Shown here: piece by piece, positions 2,586 to 42,011 of the stretch
Layout of the letters: every line of letters starts with the position of its first letter
Numbering within the stretch: the stretch's first letter is position 1
NCBI GenBank assembly: GCA_018167155.1
Contig: GCA_018167155.1_4332.1
Reading direction: 5' to 3' (one strand)
DNA from: a phage
Length of the DNA: 43,803 nucleotides
Notes under the pieces: generated by a model
What the model saw: only the letters and a program-made list of their open reading frames with translations
Database searches by the model: none
Told to the model about the DNA's origin: nothing
Position numbers and translations under genes: made by a program

Positions 2586-2615
2586 CTCTGTCTTTCCTCT
2601 CGTTTGTGTAAATGA

Positions 2616-2644
2616 ATAGTAGCCTATTATATCTTAGTGTGCAA
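2616..2644 (-). promoter_or_regulatory. Sigma70-like promoter (minus-strand TTGCAC-N17-TACTAT) with embedded AATAG-N4-CTATT palindrome
   Basis: Plus-strand gtgcaa at 2639-2644 and atagta at 2616-2621 with 17-nt spacing; palindrome AATAGTAGCCTATT at 2615-2628; 30 nt upstream of the start at 2585. Confidence 0.6.
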
Positions 2645-2791
2645 GTAAATTTTATTGGTGTTTGTATTGTTGCATCTCCTGCAATAGTCGCTTTGATTGT
2701 TGCGTTTGGTGAAATAGAACAAAAATGATACGCTGCTGGGTAGCAGCGTAAGTCACTCAGTAAAATCCCAAACTATTGTTACAATATAACA

Positions 2792-3396: not shown

Positions 3397-3628
3397 GGCA
3401 ACCTCCCTCAGAGTCGTCGGCACTCGCATCATGATTCGATGCCGTTGTGTGTACCTTCGCCTCGGCTTTAGTTACTGGCACTTTGTAATGTCCTACCTTA
3501 ATCCACCAGCCATCGTTACAGGAGTCCAGCATATCAAAAACATCACCAACATTTACGCCTATGCTTTCCAGAGTATCGTTAGCTGTTTCGTAGGTAACGG
3601 TGTTATCTGTAATTATGATTTGCATCAC
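3389..3628 (-). CDS. Hypothetical protein
   Basis: 79 aa ORF, co-directional and tightly packed with its neighbours. Confidence 0.5.
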   Translation of the reverse strand: MMQIIITDNTVTYETANDTLESIGVNVGDVFDMLDSCNDGWWIKVGHYKVPVTKAEAKVHTTASNHDASADDSEGGCRE

Positions 3629-3822
3629 TTCACCCCTTTGAATTTAAAATTGTTGCCGATGAGTTCTAAATCGGATGGCTTGCGATACGCTATCCATGAA
3701 CCTGTAACAGTTTTAACAGGCAAGAATCCTTTAAATTCAGATTCAATATTAATAGGCTTGCTGACAACCTGAACTAAAAGCCCTGTACCTATATCCCTGG
3801 CCAACTGACCCTTCTTAAACAT
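3625..3822 (-). CDS. Hypothetical protein (first gene of the leftward operon)
   Basis: ORF track 3625..3831; ATG at 3822 preceded by GAGGAGTGAGGG; promoter immediately upstream. Confidence 0.5.
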   Translation of the reverse strand: MFKKGQLARDIGTGLLVQVVSKPINIESEFKGFLPVKTVTGSWIAYRKPSDLELIGNNFKFKGVK

Positions 3823-3856
3823 AACCCTCACTCCTCTGTCTCGTTCCGATAAGTGA

Positions 3857-3885
3857 ATAGTATCCTATTATGTTGGGGTGTGCAA
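3857..3885 (-). promoter_or_regulatory. Sigma70-like promoter (TTGCAC-N17-TACTAT) with AATAG-N4-CTATT palindrome
   Basis: Plus-strand gtgcaa 3880-3885 and atagta 3857-3862; palindrome AATAGTATCCTATT at 3856-3869. Confidence 0.6.
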
Positions 3886-4266
3886 GAGATTCATTGAAAA
3901 TGGTTACGTTGCCGTTGTGGATTCTTTATGGGAGGTTGTGCCTTTATTCTTATTACTTGGTAACTAAAGGGCAGGCCTTAAGCCTGCCCAATAATCGTTA
4001 CATTTTTACGGTCGCGAATCTATGGCACATTAAGAAAATCAGATACTTAAGAGATATGCTGCCGATGTGAATAGAGCTTGCCCAGGGCAACCGGAGATAC
4101 TTAGGAAGGAAAGTTACGACAATTCTTATGTTCAGTAAGCCTGTGTTTAACCCTTTGCTTGACGCACGGGTTAAACATTCTTACAAGGTGAACAAGAATC
4201 AAAGTAACTAAGATATAGAAGCACCTTAAACGAAGATTTTCATAATGTCAATAGGTGCGATTATGT

Positions 4267-4295
4267 TTGATTTCCCATTATTCGCAATGTATACT
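4267..4295 (+). promoter_or_regulatory. Sigma70-like promoter TTGATT-N17-TATACT for the rightward replication operon
   Basis: Hexamers at 4267-4272 and 4290-4295, about 30 nt upstream of the SD and ATG at 4328; lacks the AATAG palindrome. Confidence 0.5.
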
Positions 4296-4327
4296 TGGTT
4301 TCGTTAACTGATAGTGAGGGTTTGAGA

Positions 4328-4498
4328 ATGACTCAGAATGAGGTAGCTGAGCGTATCGGGGTTACTCGTCGCACGCTTAATAACTGGTTAAAGAGTGGGA
4401 AGTTCCCGGATTGTTGTATTCGCATTATGGGTCGCCGGCAGCCAGGTACGTTCGACCCGGAGAAAGTGGAAGCGTGGATTAAGGAGAATGTGAAATGA
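4328..4498 (+). CDS. AlpA/excisionase-like HTH DNA-binding protein
   Basis: ORF track 4295..4498; ATG at 4328 after GAGGG; motif VAERIGVTRRTLNNWLKSGKFP...VEAWI resembles AlpA-family HTH regulators. Confidence 0.5.
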   Translation: MTQNEVAERIGVTRRTLNNWLKSGKFPDCCIRIMGRRQPGTFDPEKVEAWIKENVK

Positions 4499-4728
4499 CC
4501 GAGTTCCAGTCACGTGTATTTACGGCAGTCGTTTCATTAACCCGTAAAAAAGGGTCGTGCAGCGTTATGGACTTGCGCCGTAGTTATTTTAAGTACTATA
4601 GTTCAGCCATTATTGAAGGGTCGTTACGTGTACTGGTTAAATCCGGTGTCGTGAAAAATGTTGGCGGGAAATATAGTGCCGTTGCCGAAGTTCGCGGAAT
4701 GACCGCTACTTTAGAAGACCTGGAATAA
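4495..4728 (+). CDS. Hypothetical protein
   Basis: 77 aa, ATGA-coupled to the upstream gene. Confidence 0.5.
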   Translation: MTEFQSRVFTAVVSLTRKKGSCSVMDLRRSYFKYYSSAIIEGSLRVLVKSGVVKNVGGKYSAVAEVRGMTATLEDLE

Positions 4729-4787
4729 AAGAAAGCCCCGACGCGGTGAACGCCGAGGCCAAATTACTTGCTGAAGGAATATACAAC

Positions 4788-7028
4788 ATGTCCGATGTAA
4801 TTTTATCCTACTCTTGGTCCCGTCGCAACGCGCGGGCAGAGAAAAAGGATATAAACGTCAGAACCACCCACACGGCAACACTGGACGACCTGAAAGAGTT
4901 AATCCGGCCGCTTGATGCTGTTCGTGGTGGGATTAACCCGAAGACCGCGCCCGGTTATATCACCGCCGCGTGCGACTCGACGCACAGCACCGTAAAAGAC
5001 CCGGAAACAGGGGACTTTAAGCAGGCGCGTAAAGGCTTCTTTTATCGCTGTGATGCGTCTGTAAGCAAATCGTCGCTGGCGTACCTGGACTTTGACAGCG
5101 CAACGCCGGAAGAGTACCAGGAAGCTGTGCGCCTGGTTAAGCGCAGCCGCCAGGCCATGTGCCTCTACACCACGGCATCACATACCGACGAATCGCCGCG
5201 CTTTCGCGTCGTTATGCCGCTGGCCCGTCCGGTCGAAGGTGGTAACATCATCCGTGTTCGCCACGGATTGCTGGAGCACTTCTTCAAAGGCATGGGCGCG
5301 GATCGCAGCGGGTTCACTCTTTCGCAGCCGATGTACCTGCCGCCGGTTGGCTCTACCGTTATCTGGTCGCGCCGCAACGACCTGATTGACCCGGACGAAT
5401 TACTGGAAGGCATCCCGGATTACGAGGTGAGCAGCGCATCTGACTACCAGATACCGGAAGAACTGCGCACTGCATTTACCAACGCATTCGAGGCATTAGC
5501 GTTTGAGTACGGCGGCATCATGACACCCCGCGGCCTTAAGATGCCGGCCACACCAGAACACGCCGAAAACTACAGCGACCCGACGCCGCGCCATGACGAC
5601 TTCCTGCTGTGCTTCCCGCGCGAGGGATATGAAGCGCCGAATGTAACAATGATTCACGACACCGACATTACGGCAACCGAAGGCATGTCACCGAAAGAGG
5701 TGTGGAAATACGCGTGCGATGCGACCGGGCTGCCGTTCGGTGAAGTGGCTGAGGCGATAGGATGGGGCGCACGTGAATCTGCCTCATGCAGCCTTGACGA
5801 CCTGGAAGACGACGAGGACTCAGAGGATGGCGAGCTACCGGAACCAGTAAAGGCTGATTTCATCGTCGAAGGGTACATGCCGTCGGATTGTATCTGGGAT
5901 ATCGTCGGGGAATCTGGCACGTACAAATCGTTCTATACGCTGGGGATGATGTACCTTAGCGCCGCCGGATACCGGTTTGCCGGGGCTGATACCCAGCGTT
6001 GCCACCATTTCTATATCGACGGTGAGGGTGGCGCGGCCACACGTACACGTATTGATGCACTCGCGGCTAAATATGGCGAGGAAGGTAAAGATTACGTACA
6101 TGTCATCGACATGGGCGAAGTTGGAAAACTGAAAAGCCTGATTAAGCTAATGCGCGAAACTGCTGGCGACGAGCCAATTGGGATGGTTGCCTTTGACACA
6201 CTCAACCAGACGCTGGCGCTGACGATTGATAAGTTCGACGAGAATAGTTCATCAACGGCAATCGGCATGGGTAAAGTTATAGCCATCCTGAAAGAAGTTC
6301 GCGACGCGACTAGAGCCGCAGTAGGCGTTGTTCACCACACACCGAAGGGTGGAAAGAAAGCCCGTGGCAGCGGGGCATTGTACGCGGGCGTCGACGTGGA
6401 ACTGACAATCGAACGCGCTACTAACCAACAAATAAACGTATACCACTCAAAATTTAAGCACGGTCCTCAACAGAAAACGGTTGGTATGGTTCTGGAGTCT
6501 GTACAGTTCCGTGAAGCTCCGCCTCCAAAAGAGTACCGCGCGGTTGAGTTCCTCGGTAGCACGGAGGAATACGGCACAATCGTAAACCTCGACCTGCCTG
6601 AGCCGCACAAAGCGCTTGTTCTGATGCCGTGGGGTTTCGAGCCGTTCAAGACCGACGAGGAGAAAGAGCGGGAAGAAGGGCTGACAAAGGAAGGTAAAGA
6701 AAACGTAAAGAATGCCGTAAAACGTGGGAAGGATGAAGGGTGTAAGGAATCAATACTCGCTGCGCTGGAAGACCTGCAGCAGTCCGACGACACTGGACGC
6801 GGTTTCACCCAACGGCAGATAGTAGCGAACTCTGGCGACCACGCCATCACCAACCACCATCTTGAGAAGATGCTGAAAGACGGTGAGTTGATGCTTGGGT
6901 GTGATATTGACGGTGAAGTTATTCCCGGTACATACCGGATACCGGAAAAGATGGGTGACAGATTAAGACCGAAGACAATATACGAACCTAATGAAATGCT
7001 GATAGTTACAGAAGAGGATTTAGAGTAG
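4788..7028 (+). CDS. Primase-helicase-like replication protein (N-terminal AEP primase-polymerase motifs, C-terminal RecA-like P-loop ATPase)
   Basis: ORF track 4746..7028 (GTG); ATG at 4788 after AAGGA. N-terminal LDFDSA (DxD) and ASHTDESPRFRVVMPL (sxH) are AEP primase motifs; C-terminal Walker A GESGTYKS and HHTPKGG suggest a RepA/DnaB-like ATPase. Confidence 0.6.
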   Translation: MSDVILSYSWSRRNARAEKKDINVRTTHTATLDDLKELIRPLDAVRGGINPKTAPGYITAACDSTHSTVKDPETGDFKQARKGFFYRCDASVSKSSLAYLDFDSATPEEYQEAVRLVKRSRQAMCLYTTASHTDESPRFRVVMPLARPVEGGNIIRVRHGLLEHFFKGMGADRSGFTLSQPMYLPPVGSTVIWSRRNDLIDPDELLEGIPDYEVSSASDYQIPEELRTAFTNAFEALAFEYGGIMTPRGLKMPATPEHAENYSDPTPRHDDFLLCFPREGYEAPNVTMIHDTDITATEGMSPKEVWKYACDATGLPFGEVAEAIGWGARESASCSLDDLEDDEDSEDGELPEPVKADFIVEGYMPSDCIWDIVGESGTYKSFYTLGMMYLSAAGYRFAGADTQRCHHFYIDGEGGAATRTRIDALAAKYGEEGKDYVHVIDMGEVGKLKSLIKLMRETAGDEPIGMVAFDTLNQTLALTIDKFDENSSSTAIGMGKVIAILKEVRDATRAAVGVVHHTPKGGKKARGSGALYAGVDVELTIERATNQQINVYHSKFKHGPQQKTVGMVLESVQFREAPPPKEYRAVEFLGSTEEYGTIVNLDLPEPHKALVLMPWGFEPFKTDEEKEREEGLTKEGKENVKNAVKRGKDEGCKESILAALEDLQQSDDTGRGFTQRQIVANSGDHAITNHHLEKMLKDGELMLGCDIDGEVIPGTYRIPEKMGDRLRPKTIYEPNEMLIVTEEDLE

Positions 7029-7029
7029 G

Positions 7030-7056
7030 TAAAAAGAAAGGGGCGTTAAGCCCCTT
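7030..7056. terminator. Hairpin terminator between convergent genes
   Basis: AGGGGC-GTTAA-GCCCCT stem-loop; on the minus strand it is followed by TTTCTTTTT (terminates the XRE gene). Confidence 0.5.
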
Positions 7057-7261
7057 CACCGAACGCCAGCCACTTGGCGTCTACTTCCAGCACTTCCGCC
7101 AGTTTAAACAGCGTTGCCGGGCGGACGTCCTGAGTTACACCGAGCGCAAGTTGGTTAATTGCGCCCTGGGAAACACCAGCCAGGACAGCCAAACGGCGCT
7201 GGGAGATGCCGAGTTCTTTACGGCGTTGTTCTACACGGATGCCTAGTTCAGATGGTTGCAT
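7046..7261 (-). CDS. XRE-family (Cro/CI-type) helix-turn-helix transcriptional regulator
   Basis: 71 aa; LGISQRRLAVLAGVSQGAINQLALG is a classic HTH_3 motif. The only leftward gene inside the rightward operon; SD AAGGAG upstream of the ATG. Confidence 0.75.
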   Translation of the reverse strand: MQPSELGIRVEQRRKELGISQRRLAVLAGVSQGAINQLALGVTQDVRPATLFKLAEVLEVDAKWLAFGEGA

Positions 7262-7281
7262 GTCAATTACTCCTTAGTTAG

Positions 7282-7354
7282 TTGATATGTGAATAGTACC
7301 ATATTAATTATTTTATAAAAGCACATTGACATGTGAATAGTTCGCTATTATAGT
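7282..7354. promoter_or_regulatory. Divergent control region with two copies of the AATAG-N4-CTATT operator-like palindrome
   Basis: Copy 1 AATAGTACCATATT at 7292-7305; copy 2 AATAGTTCGCTATT at 7336-7349 inside TTGACA(7326-7331)-N17-TATAGT(7349-7354), which drives the + gene at 7386. A minus-strand TACTAT over copy 1 may serve the XRE gene. Confidence 0.55.
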
Positions 7355-7385
7355 TAGTCCATACCAAACGAGAGGAGAGAAACAG

Positions 7386-10898: not shown

Positions 10899-10925
10899 CT
10901 AAGGCCCTTCATTGGGCCTTTTTAC
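10899..10925 (+). terminator. Rho-independent terminator
   Basis: AAGGCCC-TTCATT-GGGCCTT stem-loop followed by TTTTTA. Confidence 0.55.
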
Positions 10926-10935
10926 CGGAGTCAGA

Positions 10936-11409
10936 ATGGAACATATAAAAGATTTTCTTAGTTATAACCGAGAAACCGGAATATTCACATGGATACAACC
11001 TACGTACAGACGAGGAAAACCCGGAGACATCGCAGGATGCATCAATAGTAGCGGATACTGGCGAATACCTTATATGGGTAGATATTACATGGCCCACAGG
11101 CTTGCTTGGTTTTTCGAGTACGGTGAATGGCCCGAGGGGCCTCTTGACCACATAAACCGTGACAGGTTAGACAATAGGATTTCTAACCTAAGGAAAGCAA
11201 CCACCGCAGATAATGTGCGAAACGCTAAAAATAAGGGAGCGAGAACGGGAGTTAAGGGAGTAGTTAAAAACGGCAACCGATTTTATGGGCGGGTACATTT
11301 TAACTACAAAAGTTATAACGCGGGCAGCTACGGAACTCTTGAAGAAGCAGAAAGCGCTGTAAAGAAATTAAGAGAAAAACTGCATAAGGAATTTTATTGC
11401 CATGACTAG
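10936..11409 (+). CDS. HNH homing endonuclease with AP2-like DNA-binding domain (paralog 1)
   Basis: ORF track 10912..11409; ATG at 10936. HINRDRLDNRISNLR is an HNH motif; GVKGV...GNRFYGRV...EEA is AP2-like. Confidence 0.7.
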   Translation: MEHIKDFLSYNRETGIFTWIQPTYRRGKPGDIAGCINSSGYWRIPYMGRYYMAHRLAWFFEYGEWPEGPLDHINRDRLDNRISNLRKATTADNVRNAKNKGARTGVKGVVKNGNRFYGRVHFNYKSYNAGSYGTLEEAESAVKKLREKLHKEFYCHD

Positions 11410-13807: not shown

Positions 13808-13998
13808 GCAACAAACCATTTAGTAAGAAACTAGCCGCGTTAGTGGATATGCCAGAATGGGAATTTATCATGGTAATGGGAGATGGGTTCTTTAGTGACG
13901 TTTGTGCAGGATGTACGCACAAAGGTGTTTACTACTCAGAACACGACATCTACCAAGCGTACTTCCTGCGTAACCCGGATGCGGAGCCGTTGTTATGA
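13804..13998 (+). CDS. Hypothetical protein
   Basis: ORF track 13795..13998; ATG at 13804. Confidence 0.45.
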   Translation: MSNKPFSKKLAALVDMPEWEFIMVMGDGFFSDVCAGCTHKGVYYSEHDIYQAYFLRNPDAEPLL

Positions 13999-14492
13999 AA
14001 GCACCAAGTGACGATATAAAAGATTTTCTGTCATACGACCCGGATACCGGGATATTTAAATGGGTCAAGCACAGATGCCAGACCGCGAAACCTGGAGATG
14101 TTGTTACCTACAAGGACCGTAAAGGGTACATATTGTTAGGATGGAATAGGGTGTATTACCGCGCACACAGGCTGGCGTGGTGGTGGGTATACGGAGAGAT
14201 GCCAACTAAGCAAATAGACCATATTAACGGCATACGGGACGATAACCGGATTTGTAACCTACGGCTTGCGGATGAATTTCAACAGAACCATAACCGCAAG
14301 ACCCCAGTTACGAACACCAGCGGCGTGAAAGGGGTTAACTGTAGTAAGCCTCATAATGCTTGGTGTGCTCGAGTTGCTTTTAAAGGTACACGCTATCAGA
14401 TTGGGTATTTCCAGAACCTAAATGAAGCAGAGGAATCGCTGAGAGAATTTAGGGCAAAACTGCACGGAGAGTTTTGCAACCATGGCGACTAA
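13995..14492 (+). CDS. HNH homing endonuclease with AP2-like domain (paralog 2)
   Basis: 165 aa; shares DIKDFLSYD...TGIF.W, AHRLAWW..YGE.P, DHINGIRDDNRICNLR and GVKGV...EEA with the paralog at 10936. Confidence 0.7.
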   Translation: MKAPSDDIKDFLSYDPDTGIFKWVKHRCQTAKPGDVVTYKDRKGYILLGWNRVYYRAHRLAWWWVYGEMPTKQIDHINGIRDDNRICNLRLADEFQQNHNRKTPVTNTSGVKGVNCSKPHNAWCARVAFKGTRYQIGYFQNLNEAEESLREFRAKLHGEFCNHGD

Positions 14493-27231: not shown

Positions 27232-27338
27232 TCTTTAATCCTTTGGTTAAGAGGTTACAGGTTAAGGAAAATGCGCCAGACGGGAACCACCCGCTTTTCG
27301 TGTGCGACACTAGGCGCAAAATTATTCTATCACATTAC

Positions 27339-27367
27339 TTGCACACCCCAATATAATAGGGTACTAT
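27339..27367 (+). promoter_or_regulatory. Sigma70-like promoter TTGCAC-N17-TACTAT with AATAG-N4-CTATT palindrome
   Basis: TTGCAC 27339-27344, TACTAT 27362-27367, palindrome AATAGGGTACTATT at about 27355-27368. Confidence 0.6.
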
Positions 27368-27396
27368 TCACTTACACCAACAATGAGGGGTTTAAA

Positions 27397-35916: not shown

Positions 35917-36140
35917 GTTTCTCCTTTCTAGATAAGTAAAGCCCCGCCTTAAAGCGGGGCGCTAGTCCTTATCATTTAAACATAGAAACGGCGTAATCTC
36001 AGTAAACCAGTTACTTTTTACACAAGCAATAGAGTATGGCCCTTCCGAACGCGTCAGCGTAACTACACTCAGGACTTACGTCCCGCTCCGTTACCTGCCC
36101 GCGCCGCGGTCGCTTGTTCATACTTCACAAGCTCAGGTGG

Positions 36141-36184
36141 AGCTTAGCACATTTTCAGTTAAAAGTCAACTATTCGAATAGTTT
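36141..36184 (-). promoter_or_regulatory. Candidate leftward promoter (TTGACT-N17-TAAGCT) abutting a 16-bp perfect palindrome AACTATTCGAATAGTT
   Basis: Minus-strand -35 from plus agtcaa 36164-36169 and -10 from plus agctta 36141-36146; palindrome at 36168-36183. Confidence 0.35.
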
Positions 36185-36235: not shown

Positions 36236-36264
36236 TTGCAGACACCAGTATAATAGGGTACTAT
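36236..36264 (+). promoter_or_regulatory. Sigma70-like promoter TTGCAG-N17-TACTAT with AATAG-N4-CTATT palindrome
   Basis: TTGCAG 36236-36241, TACTAT 36259-36264, palindrome AATAGGGTACTATT. Confidence 0.6.
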
Positions 36265-36298
36265 TCAGTTATCGAAGCGAGAGATAAGGGGCTTAAAG

Positions 36299-36535
36299 AT
36301 GAAAGAATTAATTATCGCGGTATTGACGACACTGGCAGTTTCGCTGGCAGTTTCGCTGGCAGTTTCACTGGTAATTGCTGCTGGTGTACGTAGCCTAGAT
36401 AAACACGAGTGTGAGAACTACGGAGATGTCACAGGCAGAGAGGTAATGTATAGTTACACAACTTGTTATGTGAAAACTGATAGAGGTTTTATCCCTCGTG
36501 GAGAACTTAATTTTAGAGCAGCGACACATGAATAA
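36299..36535 (+). CDS. Small membrane-anchored protein with tandem AVSL repeats
   Basis: 78 aa; N-terminal hydrophobic LIIAVLTTLAVSLAVSLAVSLVIAAGV encoded by three tandem 12-bp repeats, then a 50-aa Cys-containing domain; own promoter and terminator. Confidence 0.6.
   Translation: MKELIIAVLTTLAVSLAVSLAVSLVIAAGVRSLDKHECENYGDVTGREVMYSYTTCYVKTDRGFIPRGELNFRAATHE
36334..36369 (+). repeat. Three tandem 12-bp repeats (GGCAGTTTCGCT-like) inside the CDS
   Basis: Directly visible: ctggcagtttcgctggcagtttcgctggcagtttcactgg. Confidence 0.7.
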
Positions 36536-36538
36536 AAC

Positions 36539-36564
36539 TAAGGCCCCATAACGGGGCCTTTTAT
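36539..36564. terminator. Terminator hairpin between convergent genes
   Basis: AGGCCCC-ATAAC-GGGGCCT followed by TTTTAT; identical stem to the element at 38641. Confidence 0.65.
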
Positions 36565-38070: not shown

Positions 38071-38112
38071 GCCCTCCTGTAGTATCGACAGTGTAACGTA
38101 TAAAAATAATAT

Positions 38113-38141
38113 TTGCAGACACCAATATAATAGGGTACTAT
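38113..38141 (+). promoter_or_regulatory. Sigma70-like promoter TTGCAG-N17-TACTAT with AATAG-N4-CTATT palindrome
   Basis: TTGCAG 38113-38118, TACTAT 38136-38141; the promoter-to-SD sequence is nearly identical to the 36236 promoter. Confidence 0.6.
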
Positions 38142-38167
38142 TCAGTTAACTTAAACAGGAGATGAAA

Positions 38168-38329: not shown

Positions 38330-38651
38330 GAACCACTTGAAGGTCTACGGGCCTTATGGCTTGCATTCATGGAACGGTGGGTATGACGTAAACGATGACC
38401 TGCCGATACGTAAAATAGCACGCGCGGCGCGACGCAATGTAAAGCCGGGTGACGTGCTAGTCATACGAGATAATAATGTCATTGTTGAGGTTGAGAAAGT
38501 TCATGGCATGTTTCTCACAGTAATACCTGTTGATGTTGCTTTGCGTGACGCAAGGCCCTACCGAGAAGCTGGGGGTGGTAAAACTGGTAAATACACATAC
38601 GGCAGGATTGAGATACATAAAACACATCTTGATAAAGTTAAGGCCCCATAA
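38307..38651 (+). CDS. Hypothetical protein
   Basis: ORF track 38286..38651; internal ATG at 38307 after GGAGTGGTGG; 114 aa basic protein. Confidence 0.5.
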   Translation: MSLRNNLKNHLKVYGPYGLHSWNGGYDVNDDLPIRKIARAARRNVKPGDVLVIRDNNVIVEVEKVHGMFLTVIPVDVALRDARPYREAGGGKTGKYTYGRIEIHKTHLDKVKAP

Positions 38652-38664
38652 CGGGGCCTTTTTC
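38641..38664. terminator. Rho-independent terminator between the plus cassette and the portal gene
   Basis: AGGCCCC-ATAAC-GGGGCCT followed by TTTTTCTTT. Confidence 0.7.
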
Positions 38665-40150: not shown

Positions 40151-41422
40151 TTAAAGTGCGAAAGTCACCGGGACGTTAATAACTGGTTTGCGAATCGGCA
40201 TTTCATATGCAATTGGGTATGTGGTTCCGTCATTCTGGTGGTCCACGCCGCCAGATTTATCCGGTTCGCCGTTCTTGTCGTAAGCCTGTTGCTCCAGGCA
40301 TCGCGCCGTAACTGGGCAAGCCTGTTCATTAATCATGACCATACCAGATTCAAGCGCCTTATTCATCGCCGATACGCGGTCTTTAACCGGCGGGTTTGTC
40401 GATTTAGCGCGTACTTCGAAACCGGCCTGCTGTAGCTGGGCGATGTCTGAGGTACTGGCGTTGTTGCTTTTACGGTTTTTGCCGCTGGCGTCCGGGTACA
40501 TAACGATATAGTGGCCCTTACTTTTCCAGCGTTCAGTTATAGCCCGCACTACATCCGGCGTATCGAACATATCAACCAACTCGGCAACAGCGTGCCACAC
40601 CTTCCCGCGTTGCACGTAAACTGTGCTCGCCATGTGACCTACGTTAAAGTCCTGCCCGATATACAGAGTCTCGCCAGGCTTGATTGTTTCGCGACTACTA
40701 TTTTTCCTGCGGTCGTAAGCGTAGTAGACCGTCCCAGCCGTGAGGTTCACGAACTCGCCGTTGATGTAGGCGTCGATCAACTGACCCGGGTATGTGTCGC
40801 GTAATGACTGCACATAATCTTCTGGCAGGAACGGGTTAGACAGGGTAGATGCCTGAATCATCTCGTAGCCTGGATTCTTTTTTACTACCCAGCGGTCATG
40901 TACGAAACGGAACCCTTCCGGCGTAGTGAACACGGAAACGGTATTAGCCGGTTTCGGCGTAATAGGTTTATACGTCCGCGGTAACTGGCGGTTACGGGCG
41001 ATTACTTTGTTCCACGCGTGCTCAGCGTGTTCCATGTTAAGGGTGTCCAATTCGTCGATTTTTGCACGAAACGATTCGTAGCCAACTATTCGTGCTGGAT
41101 TATCGAGTGTACGCAGGACAAAATCCCCGAATTGTCCTGAAGACGTATATATTATGTTGTCTGACTTGTTGTATTTGTACCGGATACCCCAGTCCGTCAG
41201 CTTCTCTTCCATACGAGGCGCAAGGATAAGACGTACCAGGTCGTAGGTAGGCTCGTACATGGCGATGATAGAATCGCTACCACCTTCCATACTGTCCAGT
41301 AGCGCGGAGTTGCACATAACCTCTGATTTCCCGGTGCCGAAGCCAGCTACGAACGCAGGGAACTTGCAATGCATACCGAGAAACGCGCCTTGCGGTTCTG
41401 TCGCCGTGATATTAACGTTCAC
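40151..41422 (-). CDS. Terminase large subunit
   Basis: 423 aa; Walker A FVAGFGTGKSE near the N-terminus, acidic nuclease-like C-terminal region; GTG start with AAGGTG SD. Confidence 0.8.
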   Translation of the reverse strand: MNVNITATEPQGAFLGMHCKFPAFVAGFGTGKSEVMCNSALLDSMEGGSDSIIAMYEPTYDLVRLILAPRMEEKLTDWGIRYKYNKSDNIIYTSSGQFGDFVLRTLDNPARIVGYESFRAKIDELDTLNMEHAEHAWNKVIARNRQLPRTYKPITPKPANTVSVFTTPEGFRFVHDRWVVKKNPGYEMIQASTLSNPFLPEDYVQSLRDTYPGQLIDAYINGEFVNLTAGTVYYAYDRRKNSSRETIKPGETLYIGQDFNVGHMASTVYVQRGKVWHAVAELVDMFDTPDVVRAITERWKSKGHYIVMYPDASGKNRKSNNASTSDIAQLQQAGFEVRAKSTNPPVKDRVSAMNKALESGMVMINEQACPVTARCLEQQAYDKNGEPDKSGGVDHQNDGTTYPIAYEMPIRKPVINVPVTFAL

Positions 41423-41921
41423 CGGGCACCACCTTAATCGTTACTTCACTGATTGGCTCGTCGCGTACTTCTTCGGCGGCAACTGTTTTATTCAGTCCCA
41501 GCTTCGCAGCAGCAAACGTAGCGGAGATGCCCGCAGCCCCTGTCTCGGTGAAGTATGCCTCTTCCAGCGCCTGTGCTGTTTCATAGGCTTCTGCAAATGC
41601 GGGGATCTCACGCAGCCACAGCTTAATAATCGGGATAGTGACGCCGATGTGTAAGGCAAAGCGGGCGAGTGATGGTGGTTTATCCTGAATCAGTGGGCGT
41701 TCGTCACCTTTGGACGTTGGCACAAGCTCCCACGACGTGCGGTCGAAGAACTCGATTAACGCGTCGCAATAGTCCGGGTCCCACAACGCGGCGGAATTAC
41801 GGGATGATTGGTAAAGGCTCTGTTTACCGCGCGGCCGTCTGCGGCGACGGTTTGCGCTAACAGCTTCTTCATGTGCAGCTTGCACCACCTCTGGCGATGG
41901 CTGCTTGAGTTTCAGCTTCAT
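41412..41921 (-). CDS. Terminase small subunit (putative)
   Basis: ORF track 41412..41960; ATG at 41921 after AAGGGGA; basic N-terminus, overlaps the TerL start by 11 nt. Confidence 0.5.
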   Translation of the reverse strand: MKLKLKQPSPEVVQAAHEEAVSANRRRRRPRGKQSLYQSSRNSAALWDPDYCDALIEFFDRTSWELVPTSKGDERPLIQDKPPSLARFALHIGVTIPIIKLWLREIPAFAEAYETAQALEEAYFTETGAAGISATFAAAKLGLNKTVAAEEVRDEPISEVTIKVVPGER

Positions 41922-42011
41922 AGAATCCCCTTGCATATGCGTCTGACCATCAGAGCGCATCAGACGCGCCCTGCGCGTCTAAAGGGATTATATAAGGGGA
42001 TTGGGCGGGAT

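Follow-up and report, generated by a model that had tools for sequence, protein, structure and literature searches.

A conserved, structured non-coding region between divergent operons of a Kagunavirus-like phage as a candidate leader/attenuator for late genes

Results

A non-coding stretch of about 370 bp, at positions 3896-4266 of a Kagunavirus-like siphophage genome (GenBank assembly GCA_018167155.1, contig GCA_018167155.1_4332.1; the whole 43,803-nt stretch of DNA analysed is referred to as the window), carries the motif of an unannotated leftward promoter, here named Pint, followed by a conserved and partly covarying structure that has no coding potential and ends in a terminator-like hairpin on the minus strand. 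It is one of two such promoter-leader-hairpin cassettes per genome, both conserved to an extreme degree and both running along the strand of the lysis and morphogenesis genes, ahead of these late genes. From sequence comparison, the 370 bp are tentatively interpreted as the structured leader of Pint, which may act in cis as a leader/attenuator for the late gene blocks; this is quite possible and far from assured. The interpretation was reached because there are two cassettes, both on the late-gene strand, and because cassette 2 lies right before the spanin, scaffold and capsid genes with no promoter between. An initial annotation had instead proposed a replication origin or a packaging site, a reading that is mostly not supported.

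An internal leftward promoter

The initial annotation had placed the stretch between a leftward and a rightward promoter. Both of these, PL and PR (Table 1), are plausible, and they do flank the stretch; what was overlooked is a third promoter, conserved and leftward, that lies inside the interval itself. The right part of the region (4039-4327) comes in three types, namely A, which the window carries and which can be aligned with Jerseyviruses, B, and a third one, and the pattern TTGAC(A/T)-17-TAAGNT is kept across allelic versions whose spacers and flanks cannot be aligned. Jerseyviruses have TTGACA and TAAGTT around a different spacer, B-type alleles have TTGACT and TAAGCT, with a preceding TGn, around a spacer that is different again, and in the third allele this position is occupied by TTGAAA-18-TATAAT. 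Hexamers and a spacing that stay constant around unrelated spacer sequences mark a working promoter, and we infer that Pint fires. A promoter is also annotated at the equivalent place in the GenBank record of phage Jersey.

The strict Pint-type pattern has exactly two occurrences in each of three Kagunavirus genomes, the window, Bas73 and RP180, and these are invariably on the late-gene strand. Within a lineage the two spacers resemble each other over a short motif, TGAAAAT in both Kagunavirus promoters and TTATTTTTT in both Jersey promoters. The initially transcribed region, at about +2 to +7 from a presumed start, reads TATCTT in Kagunavirus and TAACTT in Jerseyvirus; GAGCTT is found in B-type leaders, and a repeated TACGCT in cassette 2 of Jersey.

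Absence of a conserved open reading frame

The earlier view that the stretch lacks a convincing open reading frame (ORF) was borne out, as none of its ORFs is conserved among relatives. The 66-aa ORF at 3870-4070 (+) is interrupted by stops in L005, L006, L007, L008, L024 and L041, a 106-aa ORF annotated in Bas73 is likewise stop-interrupted in six relatives, and in L005 and L018 a 30-aa ORF on the minus strand is disrupted; Pfam and PHROG gave no match for either the 66-aa or the 30-aa ORF. In cassette 2 of Bas73 an annotated 36-aa ORF begins within a hairpin loop, and other alleles do not have it. The ORFs called inside the cassettes (for example Bas73_0055, Bas73_0007 and Jersey_08) are probably spurious. 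That one or more small protein genes have gone unrecognised here, for instance the Bas73_0055 ORF or a leader peptide of 9-11 codons before the hairpin, is very improbable: some records do annotate ORFs, and a 9-codon ORF (GGGAGG-tt-GTG) ends just before the hairpin, but every long frame is interrupted in some relatives, ORF extents vary among genomes, no family matches were obtained, and the 9-codon ORF has a Shine-Dalgarno spacing of 2 nt and shows only non-synonymous variation.

Conservation, alleles and modules

The window represents the complete or near-complete genome of a coliphage of the Guernseyvirinae. Positions 3400-4800 match more than 360 phage records, at ∼90-95% identity for E. 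coli Kagunaviruses and ∼77% for Salmonella Jerseyviruses, and alignment with these relatives confirmed a strongly conserved, structured and non-coding region. Segment 3923-4072 is 90-96% identical to four Jerseyviruses, compared with 40-50% at third and 65-80% at first and second codon positions of the neighbouring p77 and helicase-primase genes, while the tip of the long hairpin (4123-4172) is 44% identical to Jerseyviruses. The region is thus a mosaic of near-invariant and free-running segments, a pattern that selection on specific elements produces.

In other Kagunaviruses, one of two unalignable modules (1b, 1c) takes the place of module 1a (3928-4056), and phage Jersey lacks 1a. The modules reassort freely with the right-part types, L009 combining 1b with A and L058 combining 1a with B. 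The GC hairpins of modules 1b and 1c keep their position but have no U-tract, so that what the alternative modules share is a GC hairpin and not a canonical terminator. In module 1c of L027, L030 and L048 a (GAGT)n microsatellite of 4 to 7 copies adjoins the GC hairpin (equivalent to ∼3990-4030). A metagenome scan with a 15-mer anchor, which was too short, returned 120 stretches with one true relative (L183), and a viral-contig scan with the helicase-primase returned close relatives only. Distant matches to the helix-turn-helix (HTH) gene, in L050 and L051, were set aside as lying in unrelated contexts.

Inverted repeats and folding of the minus-strand RNA

The three structural features described initially, a GC-rich hairpin, a palindrome and an ATTCTT/AAGAAT inverted repeat, are all present in the sequence. 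The GC hairpin reads GGGCAGGC-CTTAA-GCCTGCCC and occupies 3969-3989, its position having been given 3 nt too far left and its loop as 4 rather than 5 nt; when the 371 bp were dinucleotide-shuffled 500 times, 19 shuffles attained a perfect 8-bp stem with a loop of 3-8 nt. The palindrome TTGCCCAGGGCAA exists as 13 nt at 4078-4090, at chance level (146 of 500 shuffles contain a stem that long), and is only partly kept, being down to 3-4 bp in Jerseyviruses. ATTCTT (4177-4182) and AAGAAT (4194-4199) exist as well, yet they are mere parts of a ∼100-nt irregular hairpin, designated domain I, whose perfect 10-bp tip (4144-4153/4168-4177) had been missed and is the least chance-like repeat (3 of 500 shuffles). 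Above chance are therefore only the GC hairpin at 3969-3989 and the 10-bp inverted repeat at 4144-4177. The tip sequence of domain I is replaced by other hairpins in relatives. AAGAAT/ATTCTT had also been considered as iterons, with 5 copies against 0.25 expected, and were rejected because the copies are arms of the long hairpin and are unconserved as sequence.

On the minus strand, the GC hairpin has the form of an intrinsic terminator, with an 8-9 bp stem (ΔG about -17 kcal/mol) followed by UUUAGUUAC, and it was also returned by a terminator scan. Its terminator d-score is +14 on the minus strand versus -33 on the plus strand; the U-tract is interrupted, which makes the strength of the terminator uncertain. 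A compensatory change from C:G to T:A is present in the hairpin of 5 sequences. As separate observations, the loop CTTAA (3977-3981) is exactly reverse-complemented (TTAAG) in L006 and L008, and at ∼1535-1550 of L058 GTGCCTTTATTC has given way to GTGCCGTAGATTC, which repeats 4015-4027 perfectly in inverted form; both changes resemble the outcome of template switching at quasi-palindromes.

Minus-strand RNA from 4225 to 3960 folds with a z-score of -5.8, and the plus strand of the whole interval with -3.6. For domain I of four Kagunavirus alleles the minus-strand z-scores are -7.2, -4.8, -3.6 and -4.9, versus -3.6, -0.8, -0.4 and -0.4 on the plus strand; in Jerseyviruses both strands fold similarly. 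The bias in the Kagunavirus alleles argues for a minus-strand RNA rather than a DNA cruciform. In the A-type minus-strand consensus of 23 sequences, 50 pairs are formed and 99.2% of cells pair (30-47% in slid controls), with 4 covarying pairs that include C:G to U:A in the GC hairpin. The B-type consensus has -18.2 kcal/mol and 4 covarying pairs on the minus strand, one of them with three Watson-Crick types, and -13.9 with 1 covarying pair on the plus strand; G-U cells number 43 versus 1 A-C cell. Covariation thus fixes the strand as minus for the B type.

TTGCCGT in the block at 3903-3927 has its inverted partner in ACGGCA(A/C), a motif that modules 1a, 1b and 1c all retain at their right edge. 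A long-range helix between the two was downgraded because ACGGCAAC is the commonest 8-mer of the genome; in both orientations, ACGGCAAC/GTTGCCGT, it has 20 copies (e.g. 2310, 3395, 3908, 4872) compared with 2.35 in shuffles, an abundance that may be compositional.

Conserved blocks of this kind might instead belong to an operator or enhancer for the divergent early promoters, in which case they would be candidate sites for proteins, such as the phage HTH proteins or, at an IHF-like WATCAGNNNNTTR site (4037-4049; one mismatch, judged by eye), a host factor, and the hairpins would be by-products of binding sites in inverted arrangement. This is quite improbable. Short inverted and direct repeats (TTGCCGT/ACGGCA, AGATACTTA, ATCAG-NN-ACTTA) are conserved across alleles, the HTH gene is adjacent, and conservation covers predicted loops in addition to stems, all of which would suit protein binding. 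An operator would, however, leave unexplained the conserved promoter hexamers with variable spacers, the compensatory and G-U-type changes in stems, and the hairpins kept in position despite replaced sequence, and ACGGCAAC recurs throughout the genome.

The window was also compared with known RNA families. Across its whole length no Rfam match reached the gathering score, and scans of the region at E values up to 10 and of five other alleles revealed no family. The best sub-threshold match, to Hrs12 (21.6-27.8 bits versus a threshold of 70), came from the terminator hairpin alone, and all of the weak matches at the GC hairpin are terminators of small RNAs (sRNAs) on the minus strand. No tRNA or tmRNA was found. 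Since no similarity to plasmids or E. coli genomes was found either, the stretch is not a host or plasmid mimic.

A second cassette before the spanin gene

Segment 36027-36169 is 88% identical to the B-type allele that lies upstream of the HTH gene in other Kagunaviruses. It forms part of cassette 2, which repeats the order of promoter, structured leader and GC hairpin, and which has an equivalent before the spanin gene of phage Jersey. A covariance model of the B-type leader matches cassette 2 in the window (E 6e-27) and the same place in Jersey (E 5.5e-7), and the covariation for this kind of leader is seen in the homologous B-type alleles. Behind the tail of the hairpin follow 4 nt, an AAGGAG Shine-Dalgarno sequence and the ATG (35916) of an Rz-like spanin (E 2.5e-56), and no other promoter was found between cassette 2 and the spanin gene. 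The 259-bp cassette is 95-99% identical in 179 phage records of two genera, 65 of them Salmonella phages, and is mostly unannotated. Its leader is 98.1% identical to that of SETP13, compared with 0.74, 0.82 and 0.56 by codon position for the adjoining spanin gene.

These findings bear on whether the stretch encodes a stand-alone sRNA of ∼250 nt, made by Pint, ended by the GC hairpin and acting in trans on host or phage targets, for example through its CU-rich stretch. A promoter, a 5′ hairpin, a conserved single-stranded block and a terminator-like 3′ hairpin make up the usual anatomy of bacterial sRNAs, the weak Rfam matches are all to minus-strand sRNA terminators, and PL can serve the downstream genes without Pint. 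Such an RNA nevertheless seems unlikely. Because the spanin gene has no separate promoter, the RNA of cassette 2 must be a leader, and an sRNA would fit cassette 1 only. In addition, a search of the phage for targets complementary to the CU-rich stretch gave none beyond chance, no resemblance to sequences of E. coli or plasmids was found, and modules 1b and 1c have no terminator.

Genomic context

The non-coding stretch is part of a 505-bp intergenic region (3823-4327), and the features in and around it, together with those of cassette 2, are listed in Table 1. PL is one of five near-identical copies of an early-type promoter and leader (TTGCAC-17-TACTAT and variants).

Table 1. Features of the two cassettes and their neighbourhood (window coordinates).
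Feature	Position	Strand	Remarks
Small gene, phrog_12538	3625-3822	-	Leftward; left neighbour of the intergenic region
PL, early-type promoter TTGCAC-17-TACTAT	3885-3857	-	Conserved in all relatives
PL-type copies	3857-3885(-), 2598-2645(-), 27338-27374(+), 36236-36282(+), 38104-38148(+)		Each heads a small-gene module
Block GTTACGTTGCCGTTGTG(G)ATTC	3903-3927		Kept in every allele, just upstream of the PL -35
Module 1a	3928-4056	-	90-96% identity, Kagunavirus versus Jerseyvirus
GC hairpin (3969-3989) and TTTAGTTAC tail	3960-3989	-	Intrinsic-terminator-like, minus strand only
Domain II, predicted 64-nt hairpin	4014-4077	-	Most conserved sequence; holds first AGATACTTAAGA copy (4041-4052)
Palindrome TTGCCCAGGGCAA	4078-4090		Small 4-bp hairpin in the consensus
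Conserved unpaired CU-rich linker (CUUUCCUUCCUAAGUAUCU on RNA)	4094-4111	-	Holds second AGATACTTAGGA copy (4095-4106)
Domain I, ∼100-nt irregular hairpin	4112-4209	-	Variable tip 4144-4177; helices kept, compensatory changes
Pint, sigma-70-type promoter, TTGACA (4251-4246), 17 bp, TAAGGT (4228-4223)	4223-4251	-	Internal; putative start near 4216
PR, TTGATT-17-TATACT	4267-4295	+	Promoter of the HTH and replication operon; back to back with Pint
56-aa HTH_17 DNA-binding protein gene	4328-4498	+	Right neighbour of the intergenic region
77-aa gene p77, phrog_5169	after HTH_17 gene	+	Rightward module
Replicative helicase-primase	4746-7028	+	Rightward module
Cassette 2 GC hairpin GCCCCGC-TTTAAG-GCGGGGC (35941-35960) and TTTACTTATC tail (35931-35940)	35931-35960	-	RNA tail UUUACUUAUC
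Cassette 2 leader: 5′ hairpin, long GC-rich hairpin, blocks CUCUAUUG and GUAAAAAGUAAC	35961-36140	-	Blocks have cassette 1 counterparts
Cassette 2 promoter TTGACT (36169-36164), 17 bp, TAAGCT (36146-36141)	36141-36169	-	Promoter pattern

Leftward from cassette 1 follow, in order, PL, small genes, a terminator-like site (2750-2729), a further PL copy, and then, still leftward, holin-region genes and an endolysin (100-636; Phage_lysozyme, E 5e-26). Past the circular junction follow terminase, portal, head morphogenesis and Hoc-like genes, and at 36540-36560 a bidirectional terminator closes the series. Cassette 2 is followed in the leftward direction by genes for the spanin, scaffold, major capsid, connector and tail, with one opposite-strand module interposed. 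By this gene order the two cassettes head both lysis/morphogenesis blocks. Within the late region, the bidirectional terminator-like hairpin AAGGCCCCATAACGGGGCCTT is present twice (36540-36560, 38640-38660), each copy ending a small rightward module amid leftward late genes, and a 12-bp tandem repeat, CTGGCAGTTTCG (3.3 copies, 96% matches, 36332-36371), lies within a 78-aa ORF (36299-36535) and encodes a repeated LAVS motif.

The packaging (pac) site proposed initially has nothing in its favour beyond the presence of a large structured non-coding region, and is scarcely credible. The pac sites of headful phages are normally in or beside the small terminase gene, whereas the terminase ORFs of the window (41412-41960 and 40151-41422, minus strand) lie ∼5.7 kb from the stretch on the circular map, which makes a packaging site unlikely; the element is, moreover, duplicated.

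A replication origin was weighed against the same context. The inverted repeats, the AGATACTTA repeats and the AT-rich part would then be bound or melted by the HTH protein, p77 and the helicase-primase, and transcription from Pint may activate or prime replication. Origins that are activated or primed by transcription include the T7 primary origin, T4 oriF/oriG and ColE1 RNA II, and the stretch resembles them in having a promoter, an AT-rich start of a structured transcript, adjoining replication genes and a T7-like replisome (gp2.5-like single-stranded DNA-binding protein, family A polymerase). It lies directly upstream of the module of HTH, p77 and helicase-primase genes, and segment 4178-4266 is 69% AT, compared with 49% genome-wide; among all 100-bp windows of the genome, the third richest in AT is located here. 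Alleles of the right part co-travel with those of the HTH_17 gene and of the small protein. The stretch also lies at the cumulative GC-skew minimum, an argument that is confounded because the minimum coincides with the switch in gene orientation.

Several results speak against an origin, which is judged distinctly unlikely. Unlike the known transcription-primed origins, the cassette is duplicated before late genes and has neither an iteron array nor DnaA boxes. The motif AGATACTTA(A/G)GA is present in only two copies, 54 bp apart, no tandem repeat was found in the region, and the 5 genome-wide matches to the motif (≤2 mismatches; 2.5 expected) are within chance, as 11 of 100 shuffles reach 5. 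In three of the four Kagunavirus alleles, folding better than that of shuffles is confined to the minus strand, which argues against a cruciform. B-type leaders are found combined with either of two unrelated small proteins and either of two types of helicase-primase, and there are other AT-rich candidates, of which 7262-7385, at 73% AT, is equally good. A unique origin is weakened because the same kind of cassette recurs before the spanin and capsid genes, far from the replication genes. Among the options offered at first, regulatory RNA is the one that gained support.

Some features of the replication side were recorded in passing. In Kagunaviruses of the B type, genes for unrelated proteins of 77 or 96 aa (L027 2668-2901, L035 2668-2958) take the place of the 77-aa gene behind the HTH gene, and the window-type helicase-primase is missing from several of these phages as well; the replication module therefore begins with a cassette prone to swapping. 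An insertion of ∼140 bp with a small ORF (MVTLTEEQLEKLL...) lies directly 5′ of the HTH ATG in L008 (1597-1737) and L017 (2364-2501), equivalent to 4327/4328 of the window. A 71-aa HTH_3 (Cro/CI-like) gene (7049-7261, minus strand) adjoins the most AT-rich 100 bp of the genome (73% AT), with GTGAATAGT promoter-like motifs, so that 7049-7385 is another divergent control region and an alternative origin candidate. Two HNH_3 endonuclease ORFs (10912-11406 and 13995-14489) stand on either side of the DNA polymerase gene. GATC occurs only 13 times in 43.8 kb, compared with ∼170 expected from length, a strong avoidance; the phage encodes a DNA methyltransferase.

Discussion

In the mechanism proposed for the cis-acting leader, host RNA polymerase would start near 4216 at Pint and proceed leftward, and the RNA would immediately form an irregular hairpin of ∼100 nt, behind which come a conserved CU-rich stretch, left single-stranded, and a second hairpin. 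The GC hairpin with its U-rich tail (3989-3960) would stop or attenuate most transcripts, at about 250 nt and just short of PL, until something, perhaps an antitermination factor, permits the polymerase to read through. Acting in cis, the leader/attenuator would thereby govern read-through into the late gene blocks, much as PR′, 6S RNA and tR′ do in lambda.

In lambda, late control consists of the PR′ promoter, the 6S RNA and the tR′ terminator, which is read through by the Q antiterminator. The window is similar in having a sigma-70 promoter with a good -35, a non-coding leader of ∼200-250 nt and a terminator-like hairpin, in the position of these elements upstream of lysis and then head and tail genes, and in the very few promoters that serve long late blocks. 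By sequence evidence alone the placement is of the lambda type, with cassette 2 directly before the spanin, scaffold and capsid genes and cassette 1 pointing at the holin, endolysin, terminase and portal genes. Unlike in lambda, no Q-family protein was found among the 24 of ∼75 proteins scanned, the leader far exceeds its neighbours in structure and conservation, each genome has two cassettes, cassette 1 has an interposed early promoter and small genes, and some alleles have no U-tract.

A second comparison is with the put RNAs of HK022, cis-acting stem-loops (∼70 nt, two stem-loops) that make RNA polymerase resistant to terminators without a protein. Like put, the leader is a structured RNA that closely follows a phage promoter, precedes terminators and is present twice per genome, and direct contact with host polymerase would explain the near-identity of leaders from E. 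coli and Salmonella phages; unlike put, the leader has 215-250 nt and a different layout, and no sequence or Rfam similarity to put was found. In Pseudomonas aeruginosa, AlpA has two target promoters in the genome, both of which precede an intrinsic terminator and lysis genes, and binds an element within the -35/-10 spacer (PMC7969949, PMC9371919). The two cassettes, with spacers that resemble each other within a lineage, are reminiscent of this system, whereas AlpA is a larger protein with a 21Q-like fold and functional residues up to position 142, to which the 56-aa HTH_17 protein cannot be equated. The latter was accordingly dropped as a candidate AlpA-type antiterminator, P. aeruginosa AlpA being larger and 21Q-like and no relative being found in the PDB.

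A number of observations weigh against a cis-acting attenuator of late genes. No Q-family or antiterminator domain was detected by Pfam in 24 of ∼75 proteins (25 translated sequences were run, 24 predicted proteins and the spurious 66-aa ORF), a search in which divergent Q folds could be missed, and the PHROG-based annotation of Bas73 has none either. In cassette 1 an early promoter and several small genes separate the hairpin from the lysis genes, and the hairpins of modules 1b and 1c and of the Jersey type have no U-tract and do not pass the terminator score on either strand. As to a pause element of the kind used by the Q family, the -10-like hexamers around the presumed start do not exceed chance, as nAnnnT is expected in so short a window. 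For the A type, consensus energies are equal on the two strands (-36.2 vs -36.6); an attempt to assign the strand from covariation alone failed for this reason, 37 G-U versus 7 A-C cells having been counted on a structure predicted from the minus strand, and the assignment therefore relies on the promoter, the single-sequence z-scores and the hairpin tail. The B-type covariance model does not detect the A-type leader, and the two are 48% identical in alignment, so that homology between A- and B-type leaders is not shown. Since modules reassort freely, part of the extreme identity could reflect recent module exchange instead of selection. Finally, the one published RNA-seq study of a Kagunavirus reports genes only. 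In a literature search, no origin, non-coding RNA or promoter map of these phages was found, nor a description of late timing by host polymerase alone.

A bolder extension of the leader interpretation, and a rather improbable one, is that a protein-independent, polymerase-binding leader RNA, put-like in principle although ∼220-250 nt long and differently built, controls the late genes of Guernseyvirinae from the two cassettes. If so, the need to fit the host polymerase would keep the leader near-invariant between phages of E. coli and of Salmonella, and the leader would represent a new class of processive antitermination/attenuation RNA in virulent siphoviruses that have no Q-type protein.

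The Guernseyvirinae (Kagunavirus, Jerseyvirus) are among the commonest isolates for therapy and food safety and serve as engineering chassis, and the two most conserved stretches of these loci are unannotated non-coding cassettes that head the lysis and structural blocks. Should the cassettes constitute the late switch, they would offer a natural handle for the control or reprogramming of these phages and would define a new Rfam RNA family.

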